A stretch of DNA of 64,000 nucleotides from Escherichia coli. Its GTDB lineage: Bacteria > Pseudomonadota > Gammaproteobacteria > Enterobacterales > Enterobacteriaceae. The DNA lies in assembly GCF_009931435.1 (NCBI RefSeq), contig NZ_CP043414.1, one strand, 5' to 3'. A model generated the notes under the pieces. That model saw only the letters and a list, made by a program, of their open reading frames with translations. It made no database searches and was not told the DNA's origin. A program made the translations under genes and the position numbers. This document shows positions 1 through 20,481 of this stretch, piece by piece (positions within the stretch are counted from its first letter, which is position 1; every line of letters starts with the position of its first letter).

Positions 1-2604
1 GTTTTTTTTCTACATCGTCACGCACTAGAATTGCTCATTAATCGAAAACTGGATGATTGCGAATGCATAGTTCATTCAGTGGCTAGTTTATTGCCAAAGA
101 AAGAAAAATATACAGATGATGATCCGTTTTCCGGACTTATCGGATACGACCGTAGTCTCCGTGATGCGGTAGAAAAAGGCCGCGCAGCGGTGCTCTATCC
201 CCACGGACTGCATGTGCTGTTAACCGGGGCATCTGGTGTTGGCAAAACATTCTTTGCTGAGTTAATGCATTGCTTCGCTTGTAAGCACACCATAGGTTCG
301 CCACCTCCGTTGGTTTACTTTAACTGTGCCGAATATGCTCATAATCCGGAGTTGCTTTCCTCTCATCTGTTTGGTCACCATAAGGGGGCATTTACCGGGG
401 CAAGCGAGAATAAAACGGGGCTGGTGGAGCAAGCTGACGGAGGTTATTTACTTCTGGATGAAGTGCATCGCCTCCCGTATGAAGGACAAGAGAAGCTCTT
501 TTCTATTCTCGATAAAGGTGAATACCGCCCGCTTGGTTCAAGTGGGCCAACATATTCAATTTCGGTGCGCCTTATTTGCGCCACCACAGAGTTGGTCAAC
601 TCCTCACTATTGCGTACCTTCCAGCGGCGTATCCAGGTGTATATCGACTTACCGGGTATTCGCCAGCGTTCGGTCGAGGAGCAACTCGAATTGATTGTCA
701 GCTTCTTCCAGCGCGAAAGTCGTAAAATTGAACGTACCATAAGCCTTGATAAAACCCTTTTGCACTGGTTGTTAAGTAAACCCCTGGAAGGCAATATCGG
801 CCAGCTTAAAAGCGATATTCAGTTCTTGTGCGCGCAGGCGTGGGCGTCGGGAATGACCGAGCGCAATGATACACTAGAGTTAGATAAACGACTGGCGGAG
901 ATGCCGTTTAATACCACGCCGGAGCAGCGCCTGCTGGTCGATGCGTTGTTTGGCGGTAAAGATCGTTTGAACGTGGATGCGCGTACGTTGCCCGCGTTAA
1001 AAAATTCGTTGGCGACCAGCGCGGAAATAGAAGAGAGCGATCTGTTTTACAGTTTCCTGACTCGTGAATATGTCAATCTGCGCAACAGTAACGTGCCGCC
1101 CGCAGAAACGCTGGCTATCCTGAAAAACAAACTCAGTTCGATTTTTGAATACGGTCTCTATAGCCGCCATAGTACGGCGCATCCACCGCGCTATGGCGAT
1201 CAAATTGAGGAGCGGGTGACGTTGCTGATCGGTTACGTGGAGCAGGTATTAGGATTTACGTTGCCAGAAAACCTGGCGAACCCGTTACGTAAACACTTTC
1301 TTGCGCTGATTGGCTATGTGCGGCGAGGGCTTATACCTCAACTCTATTCCTCCAGCTTGATTCTGGATCGCTGTAAAGATGAGTATGACAATGCCACGCT
1401 TCTGTGCCGCAAAATCAATGAGCTGCTGCATATTCAGTGCCCGGCGATGGAGGTGGTCTGGCTGTGCCTGTTCCTGAAAGAGTGTCGCCACTACCGCCAG
1501 CGCATCGACACCAGCCCGGATTGCGGCGTGATTCTAATCGCTCACGGTGCGACCACCGCAACGAGCCAGGCGCAATATGTGAATCGGGTGCTGGAGCGCG
1601 ATCTGTTCTACGCAATTGATATGCCATTTGAGCAGTCGGTGCATGACACCCTGGAAACCCTGACCCGGATGATTCAGGACCGGTGCTGGCAGCGGCTGAT
1701 ACTGATGGTGGATATCGGATCGCTGGTTCATTTTGGCAGCACCATCAGCAAGCTGTTCCAGATTGACGTTCTGTTGTTGCCAAATATCACTCTGACCAGC
1801 CTGCTGGAGGTGGGGCTGGATTTAAGCTACGAAACTGGGGATCTATCGCAATTGGCTGTGCTTATGCAGAGTAAAAATATCCCTTGTCGGCTCTGCACGC
1901 CGCAGCAAGAGAGCGGTGGCAAAGTGCTGGTTATCTCATGTATAACCGGAATGGGGACGGCAGAAAAGATCAAAAAAGTGCTGGAGGAGAGCTTTGGCGA
2001 GCTGATGTCGCAGGACACGCGTATGGTGATTCTCGACTATAACGAGGTGCGCAGCCTGGAGCGTATTCAGCAGGCGCTTAATGCCAGTGAACGGCTGGCA
2101 GGGATCGTCGGCACCTTCCAGCCGGGACTGCCGGATATTCCGTTTATCTCGCTGGAGGAACTGTTTTCCGAGCAAGGGCCGGAGCTGGTGCTTAGCCTGC
2201 TGACTCCGGATCTCTCAAGCAGCGAGCGCCGACTGGAGATGGAGCGCAGCGCCATGCGCTTTATCAGCGCGCTGACCATGGAGAGCATCATCAACCATAT
2301 TTCGGTGCTCAACCCGCAGCGAATTCTGAAAGAGATCGAGGACGTTCTGAACCACTTAACCAACACGCTCTCCCTGAAACCGAGCCGCCAGGTGACACTA
2401 CGTTTTCTGATCCATTGCTGCTGCATGGTCGAGCGTATCGTGATTAACCGCAAACCGTTACAGATGGCGCTGGAAAACCGGCTTGATCTGGACGCTCGTG
2501 CCTTTAGCGTCATCAAATCCTCCTTTTTGCCGATTGAAGAGGCTTACGCTATCCGTTTATCGGACGCAGAATATTTTTATATCTACGAACTGCTCTACAG
2601 CTGA
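1..2604 (+). CDS. dgaR: sigma54-dependent LevR-family transcriptional activator (DgaR-like); 5' end outside window
   Basis: Frame is open from nt 1 (ORF track begins at TTG 31). Walker A GASGVGKT and the GAFTGA sigma54-contact motif are present in the N-terminal AAA+ domain; long C-terminal regulatory region; sits directly upstream of a sigma54 promoter and mannose-family PTS genes. Confidence 0.75.
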   Translation, partial: VFFLHRHALELLINRKLDDCECIVHSVASLLPKKEKYTDDDPFSGLIGYDRSLRDAVEKGRAAVLYPHGLHVLLTGASGVGKTFFAELMHCFACKHTIGSPPPLVYFNCAEYAHNPELLSSHLFGHHKGAFTGASENKTGLVEQADGGYLLLDEVHRLPYEGQEKLFSILDKGEYRPLGSSGPTYSISVRLICATTELVNSSLLRTFQRRIQVYIDLPGIRQRSVEEQLELIVSFFQRESRKIERTISLDKTLLHWLLSKPLEGNIGQLKSDIQFLCAQAWASGMTERNDTLELDKRLAEMPFNTTPEQRLLVDALFGGKDRLNVDARTLPALKNSLATSAEIEESDLFYSFLTREYVNLRNSNVPPAETLAILKNKLSSIFEYGLYSRHSTAHPPRYGDQIEERVTLLIGYVEQVLGFTLPENLANPLRKHFLALIGYVRRGLIPQLYSSSLILDRCKDEYDNATLLCRKINELLHIQCPAMEVVWLCLFLKECRHYRQRIDTSPDCGVILIAHGATTATSQAQYVNRVLERDLFYAIDMPFEQSVHDTLETLTRMIQDRCWQRLILMVDIGSLVHFGSTISKLFQIDVLLLPNITLTSLLEVGLDLSYETGDLSQLAVLMQSKNIPCRLCTPQQESGGKVLVISCITGMGTAEKIKKVLEESFGELMSQDTRMVILDYNEVRSLERIQQALNASERLAGIVGTFQPGLPDIPFISLEELFSEQGPELVLSLLTPDLSSSERRLEMERSAMRFISALTMESIINHISVLNPQRILKEIEDVLNHLTNTLSLKPSRQVTLRFLIHCCCMVERIVINRKPLQMALENRLDLDARAFSVIKSSFLPIEEAYAIRLSDAEYFYIYELLYS

Positions 2605-2668
2605 TCCCCTGATTTACGGGGCTTAAGGCCTCATCCAATCTCTTTTCCTCTGAGCGTGACACAAATTC

Positions 2669-2684
2669 TGGCACGTCCTTTGCT
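2669..2684 (+). promoter_or_regulatory. sigma54 (-24/-12) promoter TGGCAC-N5-TTGCT for the PTS operon
   Basis: ctGGcacgtcctttGCt with exactly 10 nt between GG and GC, about 40 nt upstream of the EIIA start. Confidence 0.75.
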
Positions 2685-2722
2685 CCTGACGAAATGTAAA
2701 CACTGGAGCAAAGGAGGCTATT

Positions 2723-3151
2723 TTGACCACAACTGTATCTATTCATCCGTTACCTGAAATTTTGCTGCTAACTCACGGCGGCTGGGGGCTGCAGCTCTGC
2801 AACAGTCTGCGCATGGTGATGGGCGAAATCGAAGGCGTGACGGAAATCGCGCTGATGCCTGTCGATACGCTGGGCGAGTTTTACCAGCGCGTCGAAGCCG
2901 TGGTGAAAACCATGCCAGAAGGTTCGCTTATCGTGACCGATTTTATCGGCGGCACCACCTCTAACGTGGCGGCGCGGCTGAGCGCCGATTATCCGGTGGC
3001 GGTGATCTCCGGGCTTAATGCCTCGCTGCTGCTGGAGGCGCTGGACAAGCGCGAACATGGCCCACTGACCGCCTGCGTGGCCGATCTGGTGGAAGCTGGG
3101 CGCAACAGTTGCCTGGACGTCGTCTCCCATATTCGTCAATTACAACAGTAA
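2723..3151 (+). CDS. dgaA: PTS mannose-family EIIA component
   Basis: 142 aa; LLLTHGG N-terminal His motif typical of EIIA-Man; TTG start 5 nt after AAGGAGG; the first ATG would delete the His motif. Confidence 0.8.
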   Translation: MTTTVSIHPLPEILLLTHGGWGLQLCNSLRMVMGEIEGVTEIALMPVDTLGEFYQRVEAVVKTMPEGSLIVTDFIGGTTSNVAARLSADYPVAVISGLNASLLLEALDKREHGPLTACVADLVEAGRNSCLDVVSHIRQLQQ

Positions 3152-3161
3152 GGAAAATCGT

Positions 3162-3647
3162 ATGGCAAACATCGTGTTATGTCGCATTGACAGCCGTCTT
3201 ATCCACGGACAGGTGGTGACGAAGTGGGTGGGGCAATCCCAGGCCAACCGTATTGCGGTGGTCAGCGACGAGCTGGATGCCGATCCGTTTATGAAAAATA
3301 TCTACCTGATGGCCGCGCCGCCGAATATCAAAGTGGACTGCTTCAGCAACCAGAGCTTCGCGGCCGCGTGGAAAGACAACCAGCTGGGCGACGGCAACGT
3401 GCTGGTGCTGTTCCCGTCGCTGGCGGCGATTCAGGAAGCGGTGCAGCAGGGCTTTGACGTGGCTGATATTCAGGTTGGCGGCTTAGGCGGCGGGCCAAAC
3501 CGTAAAGCGGTGTTCCAGAACATAACTCTGGATGAAAAAGACGTTGGCATTCTTAACGATTTGAAAAGTCGCGGCATTAAGGCTGTTTTCCAGACCATCC
3601 CGGAAGATAAGCCGCAGTCGCTGGACGATATCCTGAAAAAATTCTGA
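3162..3647 (+). CDS. dgaB: PTS mannose/sorbose-family EIIB component
   Basis: 161 aa; N-terminal CRIDSRLIHGQV phospho-His motif of EIIB-Man. Confidence 0.85.
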   Translation: MANIVLCRIDSRLIHGQVVTKWVGQSQANRIAVVSDELDADPFMKNIYLMAAPPNIKVDCFSNQSFAAAWKDNQLGDGNVLVLFPSLAAIQEAVQQGFDVADIQVGGLGGGPNRKAVFQNITLDEKDVGILNDLKSRGIKAVFQTIPEDKPQSLDDILKKF

Positions 3648-3672
3648 CCCTCTGAACATGGGATAACAAATT

Positions 3673-4422
3673 ATGGATACCTTACTTTTTGCAAGCCTGA
3701 TGGGGCTGTATTACTGGTTTGCCCGGTTGCGCCTTGGCTATACCTTCTCCGCCATGCTGTTACAGCCAGTGGTGGTGGCGGTCTTTGTCGGCCTGCTGCT
3801 CGGCAACATGCCTGCGGCGATGATTATCGGCGCGGGGATGCAGTTGGTATATCTGGGTGTGACCTCAACGCCAGGCGGCAATGTGCCGTCAGACCCGGCG
3901 CTGGCGGCCTGTATCGCCATTCCTATCGCCGTTAAGGCCAATATGGACCCGAACCTGGCGATTGCACTGGCGATTCCATTTGGCGTTATCGGCGTATTCC
4001 TCGACCAGTTGCGTCGCACGCTAAATGCGGCCTGGGTGCATATGGCCGATAAACACGCGGAAACGGCCAATATGTCAGCCATTATGCGCTGCGCCTTTCT
4101 CTACCCGGCGCTGCTGGGGCTGGTGCTACGTTTCCCAGTGGTGTTCGCCGCCAACTACTTCGGCCAGAACGTAGTGGAAAGTTTCCTCAAGCTGATGCCG
4201 CACTGGCTGACCCACTCGTTTGAAATCATGGGCGGGATTCTCCCGGCGCTGGGCTTCGCCATCACCATTATGGTGATTGGTAAAAAGAGCCTACTGCCGT
4301 GGTTTATCGGCGGATTCTTCGCGGTGCTGTACCTCAAGGTGGACATCATGGCGATGGCGATTTTCGGCACCTGCGTGGCCTTCCTGATTAAAGGCCTGGC
4401 GAAAAATGAAGGAGCGGCATAA
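3673..4422 (+). CDS. dgaC: PTS mannose-family EIIC membrane component
   Basis: 249 aa hydrophobic protein in EIIC position of the operon. Confidence 0.8.
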   Translation: MDTLLFASLMGLYYWFARLRLGYTFSAMLLQPVVVAVFVGLLLGNMPAAMIIGAGMQLVYLGVTSTPGGNVPSDPALAACIAIPIAVKANMDPNLAIALAIPFGVIGVFLDQLRRTLNAAWVHMADKHAETANMSAIMRCAFLYPALLGLVLRFPVVFAANYFGQNVVESFLKLMPHWLTHSFEIMGGILPALGFAITIMVIGKKSLLPWFIGGFFAVLYLKVDIMAMAIFGTCVAFLIKGLAKNEGAA

Positions 4423-5279
4423 TGAGCGGCGGCGTAATGCAGCATGAACTGGTGGAGCGCGCGCGGGAGTCCGGGGCGCTGACCAAAGCGGATATCACCA
4501 AAGCGTGGTTTATCTACTGGCTTGGCGCGGAAGTTTCCAGCTCCTATGAGCGTTTACAGAGCCTGATTTTCTGCGCCTCGATGACGCCGATTATTAAAAA
4601 GCTCTATCCGCAAAAGGAGGAGCAGGTGGAGGCGTTAAAACGCCATCTGAACTTCTTCAACTCAGAGCAGACGTTTGGCGCGGTGATCCAGGGGATCTCC
4701 ATCGCCATGGAAGAGCAAAAGACCCGCGGCGAGGCGATTAACGATGCCTCTATCACCGGGATTAAAACCGGCCTGATGGGGCCGCTGGCCGGAATGGGCG
4801 ACTCCATCATCTGGGCGGCCGTGATGCCGCTGTTGATTGCTATTTTTATCCCGTTCGCCGCCAATGGCAGCGCAATGGGCGGTATTTTGCCGCTGATTCT
4901 CTACCCGGCGATTACGCTGGCAATCAGCTACGGCATGGTGCACAAGGGCTATACGCTAGGGCGCGATTCGATTATCAGCCTGCTGCAGGGGGGGCGCATC
5001 AAGGAGCTTATCTACGGCGCTAACGTACTGGGGCTTATCATGATGGGTGCGCTATCCGCGAGCTTTGTCAAGATAACCTCACCTTTAAAAATTAGCGCAC
5101 TGAAAGGCTCTGAAGTGGTGGTACAGCAGATTCTTGACTCCATCGCGCCCGGCCTACTGCCGCTGGCGGCAGTGTTCGCGATCTACTTCTATCAGGTGAA
5201 AAAGGGACCGCGTTACACCACGATTTTGCTGTCAATTGTGGCGTTGAGCGTGGTCTGCTCGCTGCTGGGAGTGCTGTAA
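4422..5279 (+). CDS. dgaD: PTS mannose-family EIID membrane component
   Basis: 285 aa; ATG overlaps the dgaC stop (ATAATG); EIID-like membrane protein. Confidence 0.8.
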   Translation: MSGGVMQHELVERARESGALTKADITKAWFIYWLGAEVSSSYERLQSLIFCASMTPIIKKLYPQKEEQVEALKRHLNFFNSEQTFGAVIQGISIAMEEQKTRGEAINDASITGIKTGLMGPLAGMGDSIIWAAVMPLLIAIFIPFAANGSAMGGILPLILYPAITLAISYGMVHKGYTLGRDSIISLLQGGRIKELIYGANVLGLIMMGALSASFVKITSPLKISALKGSEVVVQQILDSIAPGLLPLAAVFAIYFYQVKKGPRYTTILLSIVALSVVCSLLGVL

Positions 5280-5282
5280 GCC

Positions 5283-6392
5283 ATGACGCAGAATATCTAT
5301 CAACAACTGGGGCTGAAACAAGTGATTAACGCTTGCGGTAAGATGACGATTCTCGGCGTCTCCAGTGTCGCGCCGGAGGTGATGCAGGCCACCGCGCGTG
5401 CGGCATCCTCTTTCGTGGAGATTGATCAGCTGGTGGACAAAACCGGCGAGCTGGTCTCTCGCTTTACCGGGGCGGAGGATAGCTACGTTACCTCCTGCGC
5501 CTCGGCAGGGATCGCCATCGCTATCGCCGCCGCCATTACCCGCGGCGACAAGGCCCGGGTGGCGCTCATGCCGGATAGCTCCGGCATGGCCAATGAAGTG
5601 GTGATGCTGCGCGGCCATAACGTCGATTACGGCGCATCGATCCTCAGCGCGATCCGCTTAGGCGGCGGGCGCGTGGTGGAGGTGGGGTCAAGTAACCTGG
5701 CGGCTCTCTGGCAGCTGGAGAGTGCCATTACCGACGCGACCGCCGCGCTGCTGTATGTGAAGTCGCATCACTGCGTGCAGAAGGGGATGTTGAACATCGA
5801 GGACTTCGCCCAAGTCGCGCAGATGCACAACCTGCCGTTGATTGTCGATGCCGCCGCCGAAGAGGATTTACGTGCCTGGGTGGTGAGCGGAGCGGATATG
5901 GTGGTCTACAGCGGCGCAAAAGCCTTTAACGCGCCTACCTCCGGGTTTATCACTGGTAAAAAAATCTGGATTGCAGCCTGTAAAGCGCAGCATTACGGCA
6001 TTGCCAGGGCGATGAAAATCGGCAAGGAGAACATGGTTGGGCTGGTTTACGCGCTGGAGAATTATCACCAGGGGCAGGCAATCATCACCGCGGAACAGCT
6101 CCAGCCAGTGGTTGAAGCGATTTCTGCGATTCACGGGTTAACGGCTGATATTGAGCAGGATGAAGCCGGGCGTGCAATCTGGCGTATTCGTATTCGGGTA
6201 AATGCGCAAGAATTTGGAGTTGCCGCTCGCGTCGTCGAAGCGCAACTGCGTGGTGGCGATATCGCGATTTATACACGGCGGTATAACCTCCACCAGGGCG
6301 TTTTTAGCCTTGATCCGCGTACGGTGGCGGATGGGGAGATGGCGCTTATCGTGGCGCGACTGAAGGAGATTGCAGATCATGCAAAAGATTAA
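5283..6392 (+). CDS. dgaE: SelA-like PLP-dependent enzyme (D-glucosaminate-6-phosphate ammonia-lyase-like)
   Basis: 369 aa; SGAKAF-type PLP-lysine region; position after EIID matches the Salmonella dga operon order. Confidence 0.7.
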   Translation: MTQNIYQQLGLKQVINACGKMTILGVSSVAPEVMQATARAASSFVEIDQLVDKTGELVSRFTGAEDSYVTSCASAGIAIAIAAAITRGDKARVALMPDSSGMANEVVMLRGHNVDYGASILSAIRLGGGRVVEVGSSNLAALWQLESAITDATAALLYVKSHHCVQKGMLNIEDFAQVAQMHNLPLIVDAAAEEDLRAWVVSGADMVVYSGAKAFNAPTSGFITGKKIWIAACKAQHYGIARAMKIGKENMVGLVYALENYHQGQAIITAEQLQPVVEAISAIHGLTADIEQDEAGRAIWRIRIRVNAQEFGVAARVVEAQLRGGDIAIYTRRYNLHQGVFSLDPRTVADGEMALIVARLKEIADHAKD

Positions 6393-7122
6393 TTTCTATC
6401 ATAATCGTGTGGCAATTAATGTGCTGGCGAAAGATATCGCCAATGCCCGTGAAATCTATGACGCCGCCGAAGGCCACGCGGTGATTGGCGTGCTTTCCGC
6501 GCAGTTCTCCTCGGTGGATGAGGGGATCCAGGAAGTTAAACGTTGGATGGCGGAAATACCGTCCATTTCAGTAGGTCTGGGGGCGGGTGACCCGGCGCAG
6601 TATTACAAAGCTGCGATGATTGCGGCGCAGATTCATCCAGCACACGTTAACCAGACCTTTACCGGTTGTGGTTTCGCGGCAGGCGCGCTTGCGACGACGG
6701 GCGGTGAGCAGACCCATGTCAACGCGCTGGTTAGCCCGACGGGAACGCCGGGCGAAGTGCTGATTTCCACTGGCGTTAGCAGCAGCCAGGGTACGCCTGC
6801 CCGCGTATCCTGCGATACGGCAGTGCGAATGATGCTAGATATGGGCGCACACGCGGCGAAGTTCTTTCCGATGGGCGGCGAGAAGTCGCTTCCGGAGCTA
6901 TACGCGCTGGCGACCACGGCGGCGCGCAATGGTATGACGCTGATTGAGCCAACCGGCGGGATTGATTTGGATAACTTCAGTGTGATTCTAAAAACTTGTC
7001 TGGAGGCGGGTGTGCCGCGCATTATGCCGCATGTTTACAGCTCGATTATAGACCCTGATACGGGATATACCCGACCGGATGATGTAGCCGTTTTGCTGAA
7101 TAAAGTGAAATCACTACTCTGA
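6379..7122 (+). CDS. dgaF: KDPG-aldolase-family protein
   Basis: AKFFPMGG and EPTGGI motifs resemble Eda FKFFPA and CPTGGI; ATG 6379 preceded by GAAGGAG (ORF track starts at TTG 6370). Confidence 0.7.
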   Translation: MQKINFYHNRVAINVLAKDIANAREIYDAAEGHAVIGVLSAQFSSVDEGIQEVKRWMAEIPSISVGLGAGDPAQYYKAAMIAAQIHPAHVNQTFTGCGFAAGALATTGGEQTHVNALVSPTGTPGEVLISTGVSSSQGTPARVSCDTAVRMMLDMGAHAAKFFPMGGEKSLPELYALATTAARNGMTLIEPTGGIDLDNFSVILKTCLEAGVPRIMPHVYSSIIDPDTGYTRPDDVAVLLNKVKSLL

Positions 7123-7138
7123 TCGGGGATTCAGGCGT

Positions 7139-7169
7139 TACCGACCTACAATTATGTTGTAGATCGGTA
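7139..7169. terminator. 13-bp stem hairpin between convergent dgaF and loiP (candidate bidirectional terminator)
   Basis: taccgacctacaa / ttgtagatcggta inverted repeat with one mismatch (G-U on the minus strand), followed by a T-rich stretch on the plus strand. Confidence 0.5.
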
Positions 7170-7177
7170 TGTCTGAC

Positions 7178-7936
7178 TTATTTTATCCCATCCGCGCTCA
7201 TACGATCGCGAATATGCTGGGCGCGTTCGGCGGATGCCGGATGGTCGTCAAACATTGAGCTTTGGCGGCCTTCTTCCAGTTTCGCCAGTTTTTCAAAGCT
7301 GGTGGCAAGACCAGCCGGGCTGATGCCGCGTTGGCGCAGAAGATCGTAAGAATAATCATCGGCTTCTGCTTCCTGGCGCTGGGAGAATTGCGAATTGACT
7401 AATTTCTCGCCCAGATCACCAAGTTGCGATTGCGATAAACTGCCGACAATCCCGCCCGCAGAGGCTGCCGCGACTCTCACGGCGTTGGTACCTAATGCAA
7501 CTTGCATCCCTTTCTTCACATGGCCTAACGCGACGTGCCCCATTTCGTGACCGATCACCGCTTCGACTTCGTTATCCGTCATCATATCCATTAGCCCGCT
7601 ATAGACGCGGATACAGCCGTTAGCCATTGCAAAGGCGTTCACATCCTTCGCCATATACACTTTGTAATTCACCGGCTGACCGTTGATATTGTTGCCTAGC
7701 GCATTGGCAATAGTTGTCAGACGTTTAGCGTATTCGCTATTGGCTGGCGCAATCGTCGCCTTGCTGTCCATCTCCTGACATGCCTGATCGCTCAGGGCTT
7801 TCACCTGCGCATCACTCAAACTGTAAGCCTGAAAAGCTTCCGCTCCTGATGAGAGCAGTCCGTTGGAGTCCATATTCTGGCAACCGGTCAGTACCGTTGC
7901 CACGCTCATTGCTACCAATAAGGCGCGAATTTTCAT
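7178..7936 (-). CDS. loiP: periplasmic M48 metalloprotease LoiP (YggG), lipoprotein
   Basis: 252 aa from MKIRALLVAMSVATVLTGC lipobox; HEMGH zinc motif; the 325-aa ORF-track version is an upstream over-extension. Confidence 0.9.
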   Translation of the reverse strand: MKIRALLVAMSVATVLTGCQNMDSNGLLSSGAEAFQAYSLSDAQVKALSDQACQEMDSKATIAPANSEYAKRLTTIANALGNNINGQPVNYKVYMAKDVNAFAMANGCIRVYSGLMDMMTDNEVEAVIGHEMGHVALGHVKKGMQVALGTNAVRVAAASAGGIVGSLSQSQLGDLGEKLVNSQFSQRQEAEADDYSYDLLRQRGISPAGLATSFEKLAKLEEGRQSSMFDDHPASAERAQHIRDRMSADGIK

Positions 7937-8213
7937 GTTTTCTCTTCCGCACAAGGTCAGGATTATTCTAAAAATGCGCCGTTTGCAGGTGAATCGACGC
8001 TCAGTCTCAGTATAAGGAAAAGCGCAGCGGACGGGCGAGCAGATTGCGCAACATGCGAGCATGATCCAGAGATTTCTGAAGCGGCAAAAGGATGTTCCAT
8101 GTACATGACGCGCGGCTTGCGGTAAATTGTTGGCAAATTTTCCGGCGTAGCCCAAAACGCGCTGTCGTCAAGTCGTTAAGGGCGTGCCCTTCATCATCCG
8201 ATCTGGAGTCAAA

Positions 8214-10205
8214 ATGTCCTCACGTAAAGAGCTTGCCAATGCTATTCGTGCGCTGAGCATGGACGCAGTACAGAAAGCCAAATCCGGTCACCCGGGTGCC
8301 CCTATGGGTATGGCTGACATTGCCGAAGTCCTGTGGCGTGATTTCCTGAAACACAACCCGCAGAATCCGTCCTGGGCTGACCGTGACCGCTTCGTGCTGT
8401 CCAACGGCCACGGCTCCATGCTGATCTACAGCCTGCTGCACCTCACCGGTTACGATCTGCCGATGGAAGAACTGAAAAACTTCCGTCAACTGCATTCCAA
8501 AACTCCGGGCCACCCGGAAGTGGGTTACACCGCTGGTGTGGAAACCACTACAGGTCCGCTGGGTCAGGGTATTGCCAATGCAGTCGGTATGGCGATTGCA
8601 GAAAAAACGCTGGCGGCACAGTTTAACCGTCCGGGCCACGACATCGTCGACCACTACACCTACGCCTTCATGGGCGACGGCTGCATGATGGAAGGCATCT
8701 CCCATGAAGTTTGCTCTCTGGCGGGTACGCTGAAGCTGGGTAAACTGATTGCGTTCTACGATGACAACGGTATCTCTATCGATGGTCACGTTGAAGGCTG
8801 GTTCACCGACGACACCGCAATGCGTTTCGAAGCTTACGGCTGGCACGTTATTCGCGGCATCGACGGTCATGACGCGGCATCCATCAAACGCGCAGTAGAA
8901 GAAGCGCGCGCAGTGACTGACAAACCGTCCCTGCTGATGTGCAAAACCATCATCGGTTTCGGTTCACCGAACAAAGCCGGTACGCACGACTCCCACGGTG
9001 CGCCGCTGGGCGACGCTGAAATTGCCCTGACCCGCGAACAGCTGGGCTGGAAATATGCACCGTTCGAAATCCCGTCTGAAATCTATGCTCAGTGGGATGC
9101 GAAAGAAGCAGGCCAGGCGAAAGAATCCGCATGGAACGAGAAATTCGCTGCTTACGCCAAAGCTTATCCGCAGGAAGCCGCTGAATTTACCCGCCGTATG
9201 AAAGGCGAAATGCCGTCTGACTTCGATGCCAAAGCGAAAGAATTCATCGCTAAACTGCAGGCTAATCCGGCGAAAATCGCCAGCCGTAAAGCGTCTCAGA
9301 ATGCGATTGAAGCGTTCGGCCCGCTGTTGCCGGAATTCCTCGGCGGCTCTGCTGACCTGGCACCGTCTAACCTGACCCTGTGGTCTGGTTCTAAAGCAAT
9401 CAACGAAGATGCTGCGGGTAACTACATCCACTATGGTGTTCGCGAGTTCGGTATGACCGCGATTGCTAACGGTATCTCCCTGCACGGTGGCTTCCTGCCG
9501 TACACCTCCACCTTCCTGATGTTCGTGGAATACGCACGTAACGCCGTACGTATGGCTGCGCTGATGAAACAGCGTCAGGTGATGGTTTACACCCACGACT
9601 CCATCGGTCTGGGCGAAGATGGCCCGACTCACCAGCCGGTAGAGCAGGTCGCTTCTCTGCGCGTGACCCCGAACATGTCCACATGGCGTCCGTGTGACCA
9701 GGTTGAATCCGCGGTCGCGTGGAAATACGGCGTTGAGCGTCAGGACGGCCCGACTGCGCTTATCCTCTCCCGTCAGAACCTGGCGCAGCAGGAACGCACT
9801 GAAGAGCAGCTGGCAAACATCGCGCGCGGTGGTTATGTGCTGAAAGACTGTGCCGGTCAGCCGGAACTGATCTTCATCGCTACCGGTTCTGAAGTTGAAC
9901 TGGCGGTTGCTGCCTACGAAAAACTGACTGCTGAAGGCGTGAAAGCGCGCGTGGTTTCCATGCCGTCTACCGACGCATTCGACAAGCAGGATGCGGCTTA
10001 CCGTGAGTCTGTACTGCCGAAAGCGGTTACTGCACGCGTTGCGGTGGAAGCTGGCATTGCTGACTACTGGTACAAGTATGTTGGCCTGAACGGTGCTATC
10101 GTCGGCATGACCACCTTCGGTGAATCTGCTCCGGCAGAGCTGCTGTTTGAAGAGTTCGGCTTCACCGTTGACAATGTTGTTGCGAAAGCAAAAGAACTGC
10201 TGTAA
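8214..10205 (+). CDS. tktA: transketolase 1
   Basis: 663 aa starting [12 protein letters not shown]; ATG 8214 with GGAG upstream; the ORF-track start at 8184 is an over-extension. Confidence 0.97.
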
Positions 10206-10227
10206 TCGGTAAGATGCTTTGTGAGAA

Positions 10228-10423
<196 letters not shown>

Positions 10424-10425
<2 letters not shown>

Positions 10426-11332
10426 ACTTAGTAGAGATAAACGGAACTGTACTGCCGGGGATCATGGTATCGGGTAGCTTACCGTCCCAACGCTCAGCAG
10501 TGGTGAGGGCAACAAGTCCGGGATTATCCCGCAGAGCTTCACCGCGCAGGCGGATCGCTTCTGCTTCAGCCGCACTTTTTAAACGAATAGTTTCAGCCTC
10601 TGCCGCGCCTCTTACGCGAATAGTCTCAGCTTCTGCTTTGGCTGCCGCCAGTTTACTGTCTGCTTCTGCCTGGGCCTGAGTTACCGCTATTTGCGCCTGG
10701 ATTTTCTCTGTTTCCAGATTTTGCTTACGTGTGGCAATGGCGACTTCTGCTTTCATTCGATCTTCAATCGATTTTTCATAAGCGTCAGAAAAATCAATAT
10801 TTTCAATCTGGACACCATCAATCACCACCGGGCCAACAACGGCTTTACGCATTGCATTTTGCAGATCCTGAACCAGTTTTGTACGATCCTGTACCGCGCT
10901 GATGGCGGTATATTGGCCGAAAACGTTCTCCAGTTGGGTTGGCAGCTGGCGGACGATCAGACGCTCTTTTAAAGATTCAATGGTGTTGTAGGTTGTATAA
11001 ACTGCGCCAGCTTCTGAAGGCTTAATATGAAAACTAACCGACACGGTCATTTGTGCCGGTTGCTGGTCGCGGCTGTAGGCCTGTAATCCCTGATAAACCA
11101 CAGCCTGATTACGCGTGGAAATTTTCTCTACGCTTTCCATAAAAGGGATCTTAAAACCCAGACCCGGCTCGGCAACTTTTACGATTTTTCCGTAGCGCAG
11201 CAAAATGCCGCGTTCACCTTCATTAACGGTGTAATACGAGAGAAATGGCAGCACAACCACGGTAAGCACGCCAATGGCGATAGCAATAGATTTTTGTGGG
11301 CGAAATGAGGTTATTGAAACAGGCGCTTTCAT
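10424..11332 (-). CDS. SPFH/band-7 (prohibitin/stomatin-like) membrane protein
   Basis: 302 aa; N-terminal TM segment, SPFH-like core, C-terminal Ala/Glu-rich repeats (AEAETIRVRGAAEAETIRLKSAAEAEAIRLRGEA); not in the K-12 tktA-cmtB gap as I recall it. Confidence 0.8.
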
Positions 11333-11707
11333 GAGAATCTTCCTTGAGTAAAGTGTGGGAATATGTCACATGAGGTGAGGAGAAAACAGCCAACAGGTGA
11401 GAATTCAGAATCTATAAAGGGGGAGAGCGAAAAACATCGGCTAAAAAAGTATGTTTTCGAACATTCAATAGATAAATAGAGATATGCATCACAAATACAT
11501 AGGCAGATAAAACATTGGTTTTGTGATAAACATAACAAACACAAACTTGACTTTATAAGTATAAATTTCATGTTGTTGTTATTTAACATTTTATTATTTT
11601 GGTTCATGTTTTTTTTCTTCTCGCGTGCCCAATTGCTTTCATTAAATCGCACGAGTATTTTATTTTTACCGCCGGACGGTACCCTAAAAATAAAATAAGG
11701 ATAATTT

Positions 11708-12151
11708 ATGCGGCTTATTGATTATTTTCCAGAATCATCAATCTCAGTTATACATTCAGCAAAAGATTGGCAGGAAGCTATCAATTTCTCGATGGCATCA
11801 TTGCTGGATAAAAACTATATCAGCGAGAATTACATTCAGGCTATTAAAGATTCCACCATTAACAATGGCCCTTATTATATTCTCGCACCAGGCGTGGCAA
11901 TGCCTCATGCGCGACCGGAATGTGGGGCGCTTAAAACCGGGATGTCTTTGACGTTACTTAAACAAGGCGTTTATTTTCCGGGGAATGACGAACCGATTAA
12001 ATTACTTATCGGTCTTTCTGCTGCCGATGCCGATTCGCACATTGGCGCTATTCAGGCGTTAAGTGAATTGCTGTGCGAAGAAGAAATACTTGAACAACTC
12101 TTAACTGCAACATCAGAAAAACAATTAGCGGACATTATCAGCCGCGAATAA
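11708..12151 (+). CDS. cmtB: cryptic mannitol-family PTS EIIA
   Basis: 147 aa; synteny with cmtA. Confidence 0.9.
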   Translation: MRLIDYFPESSISVIHSAKDWQEAINFSMASLLDKNYISENYIQAIKDSTINNGPYYILAPGVAMPHARPECGALKTGMSLTLLKQGVYFPGNDEPIKLLIGLSAADADSHIGAIQALSELLCEEEILEQLLTATSEKQLADIISRE

Positions 12152-12178
12152 TGACTCTCTCCTCTACAGGATAATATT

Positions 12179-13567
12179 ATGGAAAACAAGTCTGCTCGTG
12201 CAAAGGTCCAGGCTTTTGGGGGCTTTTTGACGGCAATGGTCATCCCCAATATTGGTGCTTTTATTGCCTGGGGTTTTATTACTGCATTATTTATTCCTAC
12301 TGGTTGGCTGCCTAACGAACATTTCGCCAAAATTGTCGGCCCGATGATTACCTATTTATTGCCCGTAATGATTGGTTCTACCGGTGGCCATTTAGTCGGC
12401 GGTAAACGCGGCGCAGTCATGGGCGGAATAGGGACAATTGGTGTAATCGTCGGCGCAGAAATCCCGATGTTCCTTGGTTCAATGATCATGGGACCGTTAG
12501 GTGGGCTGGTCATAAAATATGTCGATAAGGCACTGGAAAAACGCATACCTGCTGGTTTTGAGATGGTTATCAATAACTTCTCATTAGGTATCACCGGGAT
12601 GCTCCTTTGTCTGCTGGGTTTTGAAGTTATCGGCCCGGCGGTGTTAATTGCCAATACTTTCGTCAAAGAGTGTATTGAGGCGCTGGTACATGCGGGCTAT
12701 CTGCCTTTGCTGTCAGTCATCAATGAACCGGCGAAAGTGCTTTTCCTCAATAACGCGATAGATCAGGGCGTCTATTACCCGTTGGGGATGCAACAGGCTT
12801 CAGTTAACGGTAAATCCATCTTCTTTATGGTGGCGTCCAACCCTGGGCCTGGCTTAGGACTGCTGCTGGCGTTTACTTTGTTTGGTAAAGGGATGAGTAA
12901 ACGTTCTGCGCCCGGGGCGATGATTATTCACTTCCTCGGTGGGATCCACGAACTGTATTTCCCGTATGTGCTGATGAAGCCGCTGACCATTATTGCCATG
13001 ATTGCCGGCGGTATGTCTGGCACCTGGATGTTTAACTTACTGGACGGTGGTCTGGTGGCTGGTCCAAGTCCGGGGTCTATCTTTGCTTACCTTGCACTGA
13101 CGCCGAAAGGCTCGTTCCTGGCGACAATTGCCGGTGTTACGGTAGGTACCCTGGTGTCCTTTGCTATCACTTCCGTAATACTGAAGATGGAAAAAACGGT
13201 GGAAACGGAGAGCGAAGATGAGTTTGTGCAGTCCGCCAATGCGGTTAAGGCGATGAAACAAGAAGGTACATTCTCGTTAAGCCGGGTTAAGCGTATCGCC
13301 TTTGTTTGCGATGCGGGAATGGGCTCTAGCGCGATGGGCGCAACCACCTTCCGTAAGCGCCTGGAAAAAGCGGGGCTGGCAATAGAAGTAAAACATTACG
13401 CGATAGAAAACGTGCCTGCAGATGTGGATATCGTCGTTACTCACGCTAGTCTGGAAGGGCGCGTGAAACGTGTGACGGATAAACCGCTGATATTGATTAA
13501 TAACTATATTGGCGATCCCAAACTCGACACTTTATTTAATCAATTAACCGCTGAACATAAAAACTGA
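12179..13567 (+). CDS. cmtA: cryptic mannitol-family PTS EIICB
   Basis: 462 aa membrane protein with C-terminal EIIB domain. Confidence 0.9.
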   Translation: MENKSARAKVQAFGGFLTAMVIPNIGAFIAWGFITALFIPTGWLPNEHFAKIVGPMITYLLPVMIGSTGGHLVGGKRGAVMGGIGTIGVIVGAEIPMFLGSMIMGPLGGLVIKYVDKALEKRIPAGFEMVINNFSLGITGMLLCLLGFEVIGPAVLIANTFVKECIEALVHAGYLPLLSVINEPAKVLFLNNAIDQGVYYPLGMQQASVNGKSIFFMVASNPGPGLGLLLAFTLFGKGMSKRSAPGAMIIHFLGGIHELYFPYVLMKPLTIIAMIAGGMSGTWMFNLLDGGLVAGPSPGSIFAYLALTPKGSFLATIAGVTVGTLVSFAITSVILKMEKTVETESEDEFVQSANAVKAMKQEGTFSLSRVKRIAFVCDAGMGSSAMGATTFRKRLEKAGLAIEVKHYAIENVPADVDIVVTHASLEGRVKRVTDKPLILINNYIGDPKLDTLFNQLTAEHKN

Positions 13568-13581
13568 TTGCCGAGGTAAAA

Positions 13582-14859
13582 ATGAAAACCAAAGTTGTTG
13601 CTATTTATGGCAAGCGGGATGTCCGTCTGCGCGAATTTGAACTGCCCAAAATTACCGATAATGAACTGCTGGTGAGTGTAATTTCTGACAGTGTGTGTTT
13701 ATCGACCTGGAAAGCGGCGTTACTCGGTAGCGAACATAAACGCGTGCCCGACGATTTAGAAAATCATCCGGTCATTACCGGGCATGAATGTGCCGGGATT
13801 ATTGTTGAAGTGGGGAAAAATCTTACCGACAAATATAAAAAAGGCCAACGTTTTGTATTGCAACCGGCGATGGGGCTACCAAGCGGGTATTCTGCGGGAT
13901 ACAGCTACGAATATTTTGGCGGTAACGCCACCTATATGATTATTCCAGAGGTAGCCATTAATTTGGGCTGCGTATTACCGTATCACGGATCTTATTTTGC
14001 TGCGGCGTCGCTGGCAGAGCCGATGTGCTGCATTATTGGCGCTTATCATGCCAATTATCACACCACGCAATATGTTTATGAGCATCGCATGGGCGTCAAA
14101 CCTGGCGGCAATATTGCGCTGCTGGCGTGTGCGGGCCCGATGGGGATAGGCGCTATCGATTACGCTATTCACGGCGGCATACAACCGTCGCGGGTAGTGG
14201 TGGTCGATATCGACGACAAACGCCTGGCACAGGTGCAGAAGCTGCTGCCGGTGGAGCTGGCGGCCAGCAAAGGCATTGAGCTGATATATGTGAATACCAA
14301 AGGAATGGCCGATCCGGTACAGAAGCTGCGGGCGCTGACAGGAGATGCTGGGTTCGATGACATTTTTGTTTATGCGGCGGTGCCTGCTGTCGTTGAGATG
14401 GCTGACGAATTACTGGCGGAAGATGGCTGCCTGAACTTCTTTGCCGGGCCGACGGATAAAAACTTCAAAGTGCCGTTTAATTTCTACAACGTCCATTACA
14501 ACAGCACGCACGTCGTCGGTACATCGGGTGGTTCAACGGACGATATGAAAGAGGCGATTGCCCTGAGCGCCACGGGGCAGTTGCAACCGTCGTTTATGGT
14601 GACGCATATCGGTGGCCTGGATGCAGTGCCAGAAACCGTTCTCAATTTACCGGATATCCCCGGTGGTAAAAAACTCATTTACAACGGCGTTACCATGCCG
14701 CTCACCGCCATTGCCGATTTTGCCGAAAAAGGCAAAACCGATCCGCTGTTTAAAGAGCTGGCGCGGTTAGTTGAGGAAACGCACGGCATCTGGAATGAAC
14801 AGGCCGAGAAATATCTGCTGGCACAATTTGGCGTTGATATCGGGGAGGCCGCGCAATGA
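13582..14859 (+). CDS. yggP: zinc-type alcohol/polyol dehydrogenase family protein
   Basis: 425 aa; MDR-family features; synteny. Confidence 0.85.
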   Translation: MKTKVVAIYGKRDVRLREFELPKITDNELLVSVISDSVCLSTWKAALLGSEHKRVPDDLENHPVITGHECAGIIVEVGKNLTDKYKKGQRFVLQPAMGLPSGYSAGYSYEYFGGNATYMIIPEVAINLGCVLPYHGSYFAAASLAEPMCCIIGAYHANYHTTQYVYEHRMGVKPGGNIALLACAGPMGIGAIDYAIHGGIQPSRVVVVDIDDKRLAQVQKLLPVELAASKGIELIYVNTKGMADPVQKLRALTGDAGFDDIFVYAAVPAVVEMADELLAEDGCLNFFAGPTDKNFKVPFNFYNVHYNSTHVVGTSGGSTDDMKEAIALSATGQLQPSFMVTHIGGLDAVPETVLNLPDIPGGKKLIYNGVTMPLTAIADFAEKGKTDPLFKELARLVEETHGIWNEQAEKYLLAQFGVDIGEAAQ

Positions 14860-15821
14860 TGTCCCTGGCGTGGCCATTATTTCGCGTTACGGAGCAGGCA
14901 GCGTTGGCTGCCTGGCCGCAAACCGGATGTGGCAACAAAAATAAAATTGATGGCCTGGCGGTCACCGCGATGCGCCAGGCATTAAACGATGTCGCTTTTC
15001 GTGGGCGAGTGGTTATCGGCGAGGGAGAAATTGACCATGCGCCGATGCTGTGGATTGGCGAAGAGGTGGGCAAAGGCGATGGGCCAGAAGTCGATATCGC
15101 GGTTGATCCCATTGAAGGTACGCGGATGGTGGCGATGGGGCAGAGCAATGCGCTGGCGGTCATGGCTTTCGCCCCTCGAGATAGCCTGTTACACGCGCCC
15201 GATATGTATATGAAAAAACTGGTTGTTAATCGGCTGGCGGCGGGCGCGATTGATCTGTCTTTGCCTCTGGCGGACAACTTGCGCAACGTGGCGAAAGCGT
15301 TGGGCAAACCGCTGGACCAGCTACGTATGGTTACGCTAGATAAACCGCGCCTGAGAGCCGCAATTGAGGAAGCGACACAACTGGGCGTGAAGGTTTTTGC
15401 CCTGCCGGATGGCGATGTCGCCGCCAGCGTGCTGACCTGCTGGCAAGATAATCCTTACGACGTGATGTACACCATCGGTGGCGCGCCGGAAGGTGTTATT
15501 TCTGCCTGTGCTGTTAAAGCATTGGGTGGGGATATGCAGGCCGAGCTGATTGATTTTTGTCAGGCAAAAGGGGATTACACGGAAAATCGGCAGATTGCAG
15601 AGCAGGAGCGCAAGCGTTGCAAGGAAATGGGCGTTGACGTTAACCGTGTGTACTCGCTCGATGAACTGGTGAGGGGGAACGATATCCTCTTTAGCGCTAC
15701 GGGCGTGACGGGCGGTGAGTTGGTGAACGGTATCCAACAGACGGCGAATGGGGTGCGGACGCAGACATTACTGATCGGCGGCGCGGACCAAACGTGTAAT
15801 ATAATAGACTCCCTGCATTGA
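14856..15821 (+). CDS. yggF: class II fructose-1,6-bisphosphatase (GlpX paralog)
   Basis: 321 aa; start overlaps yggP stop (ATGATG); GlpX-like. Confidence 0.85.
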   Translation: MMSLAWPLFRVTEQAALAAWPQTGCGNKNKIDGLAVTAMRQALNDVAFRGRVVIGEGEIDHAPMLWIGEEVGKGDGPEVDIAVDPIEGTRMVAMGQSNALAVMAFAPRDSLLHAPDMYMKKLVVNRLAAGAIDLSLPLADNLRNVAKALGKPLDQLRMVTLDKPRLRAAIEEATQLGVKVFALPDGDVAASVLTCWQDNPYDVMYTIGGAPEGVISACAVKALGGDMQAELIDFCQAKGDYTENRQIAEQERKRCKEMGVDVNRVYSLDELVRGNDILFSATGVTGGELVNGIQQTANGVRTQTLLIGGADQTCNIIDSLH

Positions 15822-15842
15822 TGGTGATCTATCGGAAGACCA

Positions 15843-16352
15843 ATGGCGACGCTGACAGAAGATGATGTGCTTGAGCAACTGGACGCACAGGACAATTTAT
15901 TGTCATTTATGAGAACTACACATGTCATTTTGCTCCAGGGGATACGCCAGTTTCTGCCGTCGCTGTTTGTCGATAATGATGAAGAGATCGTGGAATATGC
16001 AGTGAAGCCGTTACTCGCTCAAAGCGGCCCGCTTGACGATATTGATGTTGCGCTACGTTTGATTTTTGCGCTGGGGAAAATGGACAAATGGCTGTATGCC
16101 GATATCACGCACTTTTCCCAGTTCTGGCATTACCTGAATGAACAGGATGAAACGCCCGGATTTGCCGATGACATTACCTGGGATTTTATCAGCAACGTCA
16201 ATAGCATAACCCGCAATGCGACGCTCTATGACGCGTTAAAAGCGATGAAGTTCGCTGATTTCGCCGTCTGGTCAGAGGTGCGTTTTAGTGGGATGGTCAA
16301 AACGGCGCTGACGCTGGCAGTAACGACCACCTTAAAGGAATTAACGCCGTGA
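15843..16352 (+). CDS. yggD: MtlR-like transcriptional regulator
   Basis: 169 aa; synteny. Confidence 0.8.
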   Translation: MATLTEDDVLEQLDAQDNLLSFMRTTHVILLQGIRQFLPSLFVDNDEEIVEYAVKPLLAQSGPLDDIDVALRLIFALGKMDKWLYADITHFSQFWHYLNEQDETPGFADDITWDFISNVNSITRNATLYDALKAMKFADFAVWSEVRFSGMVKTALTLAVTTTLKELTP

Positions 16353-17062
16353 AAATCGAACTGACGGTGAATGGATTGAAGGTACAGGCGCAGTACCCGA
16401 ACGAAGAGATTGAAAATGTGCATAAACCGTTGCTGCGTATGCTGGCAGCCTTACAGACGGTAAATCCGCAGCGGCGTACCGTGGTTTTTCTTTGCGCTCC
16501 GCCGGGGACGGGTAAATCTACCCTAACCACTTTCTGGGAATATCTCGCGCAACAAGACCCGGAACTACCCGCTATTCAGACGCTGCCGATGGATGGTTTT
16601 CACCATTACAATAGCTGGCTGGATGCGCATCAATTGCGCCCCTTTAAAGGCGCACCAGAGACATTCGATGTGGCAAAACTGGCGGAAAATCTGCGCCAGG
16701 TAATGGAAGGGGATTGTACGTGGCCGCAGTACGATCGACAAAAGCATGATCCTGTTGAAGATGCGTTGCACGTTACCGCACCACTCGTCATCGTCGAAGG
16801 AAACTGGTTGTTGCTGGATGACGAGAAGTGGCGCCAGCTTGCGCAATTTTGTGATTTCTCGATCTTTATCAACGCGCCAGCTACTGCGTTGCGGGAACGA
16901 CTGGTGGGGCGCAAGCTGGCGGGAGGGTTATCGCTGGCAGACGCAGAAGCCTTTTATGACCGTACCGATGGGCCGAATGTTCGCCGGGTGCTGGAAGAGA
17001 GTCTGCCTGCAAATTTGACCTTAATGATGACCGCTACGGGTGAATATCGTCTGGTGGATTAA
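16349..17062 (+). CDS. yggC: P-loop nucleoside/sugar kinase-family protein
   Basis: 237 aa; GTG start; Walker A PPGTGKST. Confidence 0.85.
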   Translation: MKIELTVNGLKVQAQYPNEEIENVHKPLLRMLAALQTVNPQRRTVVFLCAPPGTGKSTLTTFWEYLAQQDPELPAIQTLPMDGFHHYNSWLDAHQLRPFKGAPETFDVAKLAENLRQVMEGDCTWPQYDRQKHDPVEDALHVTAPLVIVEGNWLLLDDEKWRQLAQFCDFSIFINAPATALRERLVGRKLAGGLSLADAEAFYDRTDGPNVRRVLEESLPANLTLMMTATGEYRLVD

Positions 17063-19656: not shown

Positions 19657-19678
19657 AAGAAAACCTCTCTGAAAGTAG

Positions 19679-20110: not shown

Positions 20111-20238
20111 TGGAGTACTCCGAAACTCGGACGTATTGCGGATAATATCGACGCTGCATCAGTCATATTCTGATATAAGTCAGGGTTTGTGACGGCACAA
20201 CGAAAAGATTTTGCTACGCTTATTCGTGATTCTGCAAA

Positions 20239-20254
20239 GTGGAATAAATTCCAC
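20239..20254. promoter_or_regulatory. candidate operator: perfect palindrome GTGGAAT-AA-ATTCCAC
   Basis: 7-bp perfect inverted arms in the divergent region; an extra ATTCCAC half-site at 20323-20329; second palindrome TTGTG-N4-CACAA at 20187-20200. Confidence 0.4.
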
Positions 20255-20481
20255 AGGGGCGGGGATGAAAACGTGACGTAAGTCAGATAATTGTCTTCTT
20301 TGACTGGACAATCATTCCTTTTATTCCACGTTTCGCTTATCCTAGCTGAAGCGTTTCAGTCGATTAAATGTTCGACAATTAACCAATCAGTCGCAGTTTG
20401 CGACAGGTAAGGTTTCCCCGGACGATTTGCTGGATTACTCTGTCTGGCAAATTTGCTCAGGGAAAACCTTGCAGGAGATCT

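Follow-up and report, generated by a model that had tools for sequence, protein, structure and literature searches.

The first 7,122 nucleotides of the Escherichia coli DNA analyzed here (a stretch of 64,000 nucleotides, hereafter the window) are very probably orthologous to dgaR-dgaABCDEF, the Salmonella locus for D-glucosaminate utilization. Miller et al. are said to have described the Salmonella dga locus in 2013. In Salmonella enterica serovar Typhimurium the locus corresponds to STM3773-STM3766 (PMC4987338; PMC3844500). No report of the dga locus, or of experiments on it, in any E. coli strain was found in the literature searched.

Gene layout and family membership

Positions 1-7122 are filled by seven co-directional open reading frames on the plus strand, dgaR and dgaA to dgaF, all of them intact apart from the 5' end of dgaR, which is cut by the window edge. 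The features of the region are as follows.

1-2604, plus: dgaR (dagR), LevR-type sigma-54 enhancer-binding protein, 3' 867 codons of 932 (NF047795)
385-402, plus: DgaR residues 194-199, the GAFTGA loop that contacts sigma-54 (regular expression on the translated gene)
2389-2589, plus: frozen nucleotide blocks CAGGTGACACT, AAACCGTTACAGAT and GAATATTTTTATATCTACGAA in the dgaR 3' end (codon entropy across genera)
2656-2665, plus: GTGACACAAA block beside the -24 element (alignment of upstream regions)
2669-2684, plus: sigma-54 (-24/-12) promoter of dgaABCDEF, TGGCACGTCCTTTGCT (consensus scan)
2723-3151, plus: dgaA, mannose-family PTS EIIA, 142 aa (Pfam EIIA-man, 2e-12; RefSeq CDS in 2020CK-00188)
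3162-3647, plus: dgaB, mannose-family PTS EIIB, 161 aa (Pfam PTSIIB_sorb, 4e-44)
3673-4422, plus: dgaC, mannose-family PTS EIIC, 249 aa (Pfam EII-Sor, 2e-74)
4422-5279, plus: dgaD, mannose-family PTS EIID, 285 aa (Pfam EIID-AGA, 8e-90; open reading frame list)
5283-6392, plus: dgaE, SelA-like PLP enzyme (NF047797; PDB 7LC0/7LCE)
6379-7122, plus: dgaF (dagF), KDGP-type 2-dehydro-3-deoxy-6-phosphogluconate aldolase, 247 aa (NF047796; Pfam KDGP_aldolase)
7145-7162, no strand: right end of the accessory segment (breakpoint 7145/7146, occupied versus empty site), then hairpin CTACAATTATGTTGTAG
7178-7936, minus: loiP, core neighbor convergent with dgaF and outside the system (NF052399 LoiP, 440.9 bits against 365; RefSeq)
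8214-10205: tktA, the neighbor past loiP

The dgaA gene has a TTG start with AGGAGG 5 nt before it, the dgaC stop and dgaD start overlap by one base, and dgaE and dgaF overlap by 14 nt. RefSeq starts dgaF at the ATG at 6379; a TTG at 6370 was implied by an earlier interpretation of this DNA made from the sequence alone (the sequence-only reading). Over positions 1-8300, Rfam matched no RNA family, and in simple scans the cluster was not enriched in sigma-70 promoters or terminators.

The domain and family matches of the cluster proteins are far above chance in both Pfam and NCBIfam. The DagR equivalog model NF047795 is passed despite the truncation of DgaR (1401.8 bits, cut-off 1400, over profile positions 77-938), as are the models for DgaE (NF047797, 687.7 bits against 600) and DagF (NF047796, 352 bits against 300; PF07071 KDGP_aldolase, 3e-94). 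The closest solved structure to DgaF is 3NZR. DgaA carries the phospho-histidine motif THG (His at residue 18) and DgaB the motif RLIHGQV (His at residue 15). None of the four permease subunits reaches the curated cut-off of a generic TIGRFAM mannose/sorbose subfamily model. A D-glucosaminate-specific model does not exist for these PTS subunits, and the assignment of a substrate to DgaABCD therefore relies on gene linkage and on the orthology that the context suggests. The direct protein comparison with Salmonella covered DgaE. Over 369 colinear residues, E. coli DgaE is identical to Salmonella DGL (PDB 7LC0) at 317 positions (85.9%), and it keeps H162, H163, K213 and the phosphate cluster R301/R332/R346. 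At position 226 it has Lys instead of Arg; a docking model (PMC9529869) puts R226 close to the carboxylate of the substrate.

These results bear out most of the sequence-only reading, which had proposed a dga-type operon adjoining loiP with the Salmonella gene order. The order is the same, the four subunit domains of a mannose-family PTS are present, the LevR-like activator has its GAFTGA motif, and the SelA-like PLP enzyme and the KDPG aldolase belong to the expected families, DgaE being close to its Salmonella counterpart. It had also named best matches to gfr or another mannose-family system as evidence against itself, and the DagR, DgaE and DagF models favor dga. A gfr-type (fructoselysine/glucoselysine) or other mannose-family PTS locus, dga-like in layout only, would share a LevR-type sigma-54 activator, four mannose-family PTS genes and two enzymes (PMC4987338), and the generic, below-cut-off matches of the PTS subunits would suit it. 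However, the two enzymes match only the SelA-like and KDGP-aldolase families, with nothing typical of deglycases in Pfam or NCBIfam, and each exceeds the cut-off of its equivalog model (DgaE, DagF), as the regulator does for DagR. Moreover, the HPr-target histidine, a Tyr in GfrR, is kept as His580 in DgaR, an equivalence inferred from the domain match. The enzyme families and the regulator histidine rule such a locus out, and we regard it as wholly improbable.

Regulator, promoter region and predicted pathway

The first 65 codons of dgaR lie off the window; E. coli 2020CK-00188, which is 99.6-99.8% identical, has the full 932-aa gene. The domain order of DgaR is a weak N-terminal HTH (off the window), an AAA+ sigma-54 domain, PRD1, an EIIA-Man-like domain and PRD2, with Pfam matches to Sigma54_activat and PRD. 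Residue 141 is the first of the Walker A motif GASGVGKT. The EIIA-Man-like region matches PDB 3GX1/3GDW and contains His580 in an IAHG motif; His870 lies in PRD2. An activator ortholog was stated to be missing from E. coli (PMC3844500), a remark that is true for K-12 and false for the species.

TGGCACGTCCTTTGCT is the sole zero-mismatch match to TGGCAC-N5-TTGCW in the 64-kb window, and lies 54 nt 5' of dgaA. It agrees at 15 of 18 positions with the Salmonella dgaA promoter TGGCACAACCTTTGCTCT, which is bound by the sigma-54 holoenzyme (PMC3844500), and 34 out of 35 related loci in Enterobacterales keep a sigma-54 promoter.

Next to the -24 element, GTGACACAAA is almost invariant in 36 aligned upstream regions. 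Upstream of it, the windows of lowest codon entropy in the whole dgaR gene are aa 862-888 and 921-928, and 12 of its 23 frozen codons fall within the last 71 (Mann-Whitney p about 2e-4). The frozen synonymous sites of the last ~70 dgaR codons, together with invariant GTGACACAAA, can tentatively be taken as a candidate DgaR enhancer, a reading to which we give slightly less than even weight. PMC4987338 gives the DgaR binding site as "not known". If the reading is right, DgaR would bind within the gene that encodes it, 90-280 bp 5' of the dgaA promoter. The conserved blocks (GAATATTTTTATATC together with CAGGTGACACT, AAACCGTTACAGAT and GTGACACAAA) offer a concrete, testable candidate binding site. 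A second copy of GTGACAC is found at 2392-2398. GTGACAC is not enriched in the 64 kb (7 copies against 5.9 expected); its count alone is meaningless, and it is notable solely for its invariance across genera. A repeat search of 2330-2700 found no convincing inverted repeat.

The pathway and regulation of the Salmonella dga system have been described (PMC4987338; PMC9529869), and from orthology to that system we infer the substrate, phosphorylation logic and rpoN dependence of the E. coli cluster. D-Glucosaminate would be taken up and phosphorylated by DgaABCD, a four-subunit mannose-family PTS permease, giving D-glucosaminate-6-phosphate; the PLP enzyme DgaE would then remove water and ammonia to give 2-keto-3-deoxy-6-phosphogluconate, which DgaF would split into pyruvate and glyceraldehyde-3-phosphate. 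Transcription of dgaABCDEF is predicted to start from the sigma-54 promoter and to require DgaR. The regulator may be turned on by the general PTS protein HPr, with His580 as the candidate site, and turned off by the permease when no substrate is transported, with His870 in PRD2 as the candidate site.

The same genes might be dga orthologs whose E. coli substrate is another 2-amino-2-deoxy-aldonate or acid sugar, or they might form a normally silent locus. Permease specificity is not readable from sequence, and the Lys at DgaE residue 226 would fit such a change. Furthermore, a positive Biolog result for D-glucosaminic acid is reported for DSM 30083T, the type strain of E. coli, and another route for this compound may exist should that strain prove island-free. 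On the other hand, island-free K-12 is Biolog-negative, the proteins are 83-100% identical to those of the cassette in neighboring genera, the other checked DgaE residues are kept, the promoter is conserved and the seven genes are intact. This alternative is judged quite improbable, and D-glucosaminate remains the favored substrate.

Genomic site and distribution

The accessory segment measures 7.58 kb and lies between the convergent genes speB and loiP. The cluster is thus at the 3' end of loiP, downstream of it, and not upstream of loiP-tktA as the sequence-only reading had placed it. That reading was right about its absence from K-12, since speB and loiP are adjacent in MG1655, separated only by a 205-bp REP spacer. 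The accessory island that it had envisaged is accessory indeed, with 562 out of 5426 complete E. coli genomes (about one in ten) carrying the cluster. Carriers include O26 and O111 Shiga-toxin strains, 2020CK-00188 and O26 strain 97-3250. Insertion of the cluster is not established, given a divergence no greater than that of the flanks and a site shared with other taxa.

Several signs of acquisition were considered and set aside. Integrase, transposase, tRNA and target-site duplication were all undetected at the junctions, which speaks against a mobile-element insertion, and the 7.58-kb segment holds no mobility genes. The breakpoint shows a single ambiguous C only, and alignment with the empty site of strain WB61 places the hairpin CTACAATTATGTTGTAG past the right end as a feature common to island-free strains. 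GC content (0.47-0.61) is not distinct from that of flanking tktA. Identity to the copies in other E. coli is 97.7-98.1% for the island, 95-98% for the flanking loiP-tktA and 95% for cmtB-yggP; being no more diverged than these core genes, the island gives no support for a recent horizontal gain. The cluster occupies the same site in Escherichia sp. MOD1-EC7003 and Cedecea neteri. Because divergence is no greater than that of the flanks and the site is shared with another Escherichia species and Cedecea, old presence with repeated loss would be as likely as gain of the island.

More widely, the seven-gene cassette occurs in more than 30 Enterobacterales species. Salmonella enterica was not among the 80 loci listed by the genome scan, probably because its peptide seed words differ. 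The dga cluster is already known: it has been characterized in Salmonella, the structure of its key enzyme is solved, and the regulator and two enzymes have RefSeq names (dagR, dgaE and dagF in the 562 E. coli carriers). With a Salmonella-type cluster characterized, such names in place and about one complete E. coli genome in ten carrying it, the locus is ordinary. The cluster may give carriers a nutritional niche advantage, and the speB-loiP spacer, a three-state polymorphic site, could serve as a strain marker.

Comparison with known systems

Salmonella gfrR-gfrABCDEF likewise brings together, in a single operon, a LevR-type sigma-54 activator, a mannose-family EIIABCD and a pair of catabolic enzymes. 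Its enzymes GfrE and GfrF are deglycases, whereas a SelA-like lyase and a KDGP aldolase are found here, and GfrR has Tyr in place of the HPr-target histidine (PMC4987338), unlike DgaR with His580.

In the Bacillus subtilis LevR/lev system, the prototype of LevR-type regulation, the regulator is built in the same way, with PRD and EIIA-like domains after the AAA+ sigma-54 domain, and its dual control by HPr and by the EII of its own system is predicted for DgaR too. The lev operon differs in its substrate, fructose/levan, and in its Gram-positive host. With E. coli DgaR as the query, no relative was detectable beside the dga cassettes of Firmicutes and Actinobacteria.

The closest counterpart is Salmonella dga, which differs in its chromosomal site, presumably far from speB/tktA on the LT2 map, the E. 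coli copy lying between speB and loiP. In LT2, where the locus tags are STM3766-3773, the dgaA promoter maps to 3.97 Mb (PMC3844500). The E. coli copy is also variably present and has the R226K change in DgaE. The two loci nevertheless have seven genes in identical order, a LevR-type sigma-54 activator, a dgaA sigma-54 promoter alike at 15 of 18 positions, and DgaE proteins that are 85.9% identical and share the checked active-site residues except R226.

Gene content and the speB-loiP site

Window positions 1-7122 are filled by seven co-directional reading frames (ORF list), which correspond to dgaR-dgaABCDEF, a D-glucosaminate PTS operon, and are followed by two core genes:

7178-7936, minus strand: LoiP gene, convergent with and 3' of the dga frames (NCBIfam)
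8214-10205, plus strand: transketolase gene, tktA (ORF list, NCBIfam)

The first frame is a DagR equivalog (the NCBIfam name of DgaR; 1401.8 bits, cut-off 1400), with profile positions 77-938 covered and the N-terminus therefore missing. Frames two to five match the mannose-type PTS subunits EIIA-man, PTSIIB_sorb, EII-Sor and EIID-AGA (Pfam), and the seventh is the aldolase DagF (DgaF; 352 against a cut-off of 300, NCBIfam). The sequence-only reading had named a LevR-like activator with GAFTGA, a mannose-family EIIA/B/C/D, a SelA-like enzyme and a KDPG aldolase; the activator passes the DagR model and carries GAFTGA at residue 194, the four subunit families agree, and both enzymes exceed their equivalog cut-offs. 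The observation is thus real and the assignment as a dga locus holds, with minor corrections. The closest public genome, E. coli 2020CK-00188, is 99.8% identical across the cluster; from its copy, full dgaR has 932 codons and the window starts at codon 66. All seven genes are intact, with lengths equal to those of annotated copies. The dga system is already known and public E. coli genomes are annotated accordingly.

The speB-loiP spacer occurs in three states among E. coli strains: 46 bp with a short hairpin in strain WB61, a 205 bp REP/BIME sequence in K-12 MG1655 (order tktA, loiP, speB, speA, with loiP and speB convergent), and a 7.58 kb dga segment in the window's lineage.

~7146-7177 of the window: speB-loiP spacer
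3987-4032 of the WB61 locus (L002): the same spacer
6673-6877 of the K-12 locus (L082): the same spacer

The right junction lies at 7145/7146, immediately ahead of the shared hairpin CTACAATTATGTTGTAG, and the left junction ~440 bp before the window start. The cluster had been placed upstream of loiP; it actually lies downstream, in the convergent spacer. The sequence-only reading was right that K-12 lacks it, as the MG1655 spacer consists only of REP sequence. The segment comes with no integrase, transposase or tRNA gene and no target duplication, and its GC content is unremarkable compared with its surroundings.

Several other features were observed nearby. Between tktA and cmtB, in a low-GC stretch (~10500-12000; 36-49% GC), there is an SPFH/Band-7 ("prohibitin family") gene (10424-11332, minus strand). 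Strains 2020CK-00188 and WB61 have this gene, whereas K-12 and O26 strain 97-3250 lack it, which makes it a second small accessory insertion close to the dga segment. An adjoining 107-aa ORF (11329-11652) has no Pfam match. Directly downstream of tktA, REP-like sequence contains an ES036 (CssrF) sRNA family match (10312-10354, plus strand; Rfam, 48.9 bits, gathering score 37.6) between two GGGCCGCGAAAGCGGCCC hairpin copies. Off the window, a 732-nt gene (hypothetical or membrane protein; 5760-6491 in the 2020CK-00188 locus, L001) separates speA and speB in 2020CK-00188, WB61, 97-3250 and Escherichia sp. MOD1-EC7003; in K-12 these genes are 137 bp apart with no CDS annotated between them.

Distribution and residence of the segment

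Of 5426 complete E. coli genomes, 562 carry one full-length chromosomal copy of the segment, and in these RefSeq already has the labels dagR, dgaE and dagF. The window copy is 97.7-98.1% identical to the 561 others, and the flanks are 95-98% (loiP-tktA, to nearly all E. coli) and ~95% (cmtB-yggP) identical; the divergence of the island therefore does not exceed that of the surrounding core. The island is absent from the closest flank relatives, 2020CK-00188 excepted. Across 7150-20389, the core genes share only 95-98% identity with nearly all complete E. coli genomes, and loiP-tktA reaches at least 99% in 5 of 5426, so the window comes from an uncommon lineage near 2020CK-00188.

When one genome per species was scanned and the loci were analysed by tblastn, the seven-gene cassette was found in more than 30 Enterobacterales species (64-97% protein identity), in genera including Citrobacter, Klebsiella, Cedecea, Erwinia, Pantoea, Hafnia, Serratia and Rahnella. 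The identical speB-loiP site is occupied in Escherichia sp. MOD1-EC7003 and Cedecea neteri, and other sites in Citrobacter and others. The term accessory, used in the sequence-only reading, is thus appropriate; insertion is unproven, since the distribution fits repeated loss after long residence equally well.

Gut Actinobacteria and Firmicutes also carry the dgaABCDEF or dgaEF part (40-65% protein identity, tblastn). The dgaE-dgaF pairs (loci L038-L081) are widespread in gut Clostridia, Erysipelotrichaceae, Collinsella and Olsenella, often with dgaABCD. A search with E. coli DgaR detected no relative beside these Actinobacteria and Firmicutes parts, which suggests different regulation there.

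The sigma-54 promoter and a candidate DgaR enhancer

The 64 kb window contains one perfect match to TGGCAC-N5-TTGCW, at 2669-2684, within the 118-bp dgaR-dgaA spacer and 54 nt ahead of the dgaA start. This promoter, TGGCACGTCCTTTGCTCC, equals the Salmonella dgaA promoter TGGCACAACCTTTGCTCT at 15 of 18 positions; the latter is among the sites bound by sigma-54 holoenzyme (PMC3844500). Of 35 related Enterobacterales loci, 34 have an equivalent site ahead of dgaA.

In a codon alignment of 33 distinct Enterobacterales dgaR genes, the three windows with the lowest codon entropy in the entire gene are all located in its last 71 codons. Frozen codons (a single codon used by at least 94% of sequences, at a conserved degenerate amino acid) occupy 23 of 571 such columns, and 12 of them lie in the last 71 codons, which contribute 49 columns (Mann-Whitney p ~2e-4 against the rest of dgaR, ~1e-4 against the AAA+ domain). 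Relatedness is controlled, because the comparison stays within one gene and the same taxa.

Within 2389-2589, plus strand: frozen dgaR blocks CAGGTGACACT; CTGATCCAYTGCTG...GAGCGTATCGT; AAACCGTTACAGAT, containing an invariant rare TTA leucine codon; GAATATTTTTATATCTACGAA
2656-2665, plus strand: nearly invariant block GTGACACAAA, adjoining the -24 element

These blocks sit 0-280 bp upstream of the promoter, a range in which enhancer sites of sigma-54 activators are usually found. Since the DgaR binding site is also given as not known (PMC4987338), they are a reasonable candidate for the DgaR enhancer. The heptamer GTGACAC is not enriched across the whole window, and the searched candidate region contains no clear inverted repeat.

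Proposed function and comparison with gfr

DgaA and DgaB keep the phospho-histidine motifs THG and RLIHG. The alignment of DgaE with the solved Salmonella DgaE (7LC0/7LCE) is gapless, and 317 of 369 residues are identical; His162, His163, Lys213, Arg301, Arg332 and Arg346 are retained, and Lys replaces Arg at position 226. The best solved relatives of DgaF are KDGP-family aldolases. DgaR has a weak N-terminal HTH, an AAA+ sigma-54 domain (Walker A at residue 141; GAFTGA at nt 385-402), a first PRD (~475-558), an EIIA-Man-like domain (~574-651), with further matches to 3GX1 and 3GDW, solved EIIA-like domains from LevR-type proteins, and a second PRD (846-930). By analogy with LevR-type activators (PMC4987338), the activating HPr site would be expected at His580, within the IAHG motif of this EIIA-like domain, and the inhibitory EII site at His870, in the second PRD.

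On the basis of orthology with the Salmonella system (PMC4987338, PMC9529869), we infer the substrate and regulation in E. coli of the cluster whose gene content, residues and promoter are documented here. DgaABCD would import and phosphorylate D-glucosaminate, DgaE would convert D-glucosaminate 6-phosphate to 2-keto-3-deoxy-6-phosphogluconate and ammonia, and DgaF would cleave the former to pyruvate and glyceraldehyde-3-phosphate. DgaR would activate the sigma-54 promoter when HPr has phosphorylated it and the idle permease has not, a logic that would also place the operon under glucose repression. In Biolog assays of D-glucosaminic acid, which give indirect phenotype data, K-12, a strain lacking the island, is negative and the E. 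coli type strain positive (PMC4334874).

The main alternative, named in the sequence-only reading, is the Salmonella fructoselysine/glucoselysine locus gfr, which shares its regulator type and permease type with the dga cluster. However, the gfr enzymes are deglycases and its regulator GfrR has a tyrosine at the HPr-target position (PMC4987338), whereas the cluster here encodes a SelA-like lyase and a KDGP aldolase, each scoring above its equivalog cut-off, and DgaR has the histidine. Enzyme families and regulator histidine both contradict gfr, which is rejected in favor of dga, as originally proposed.
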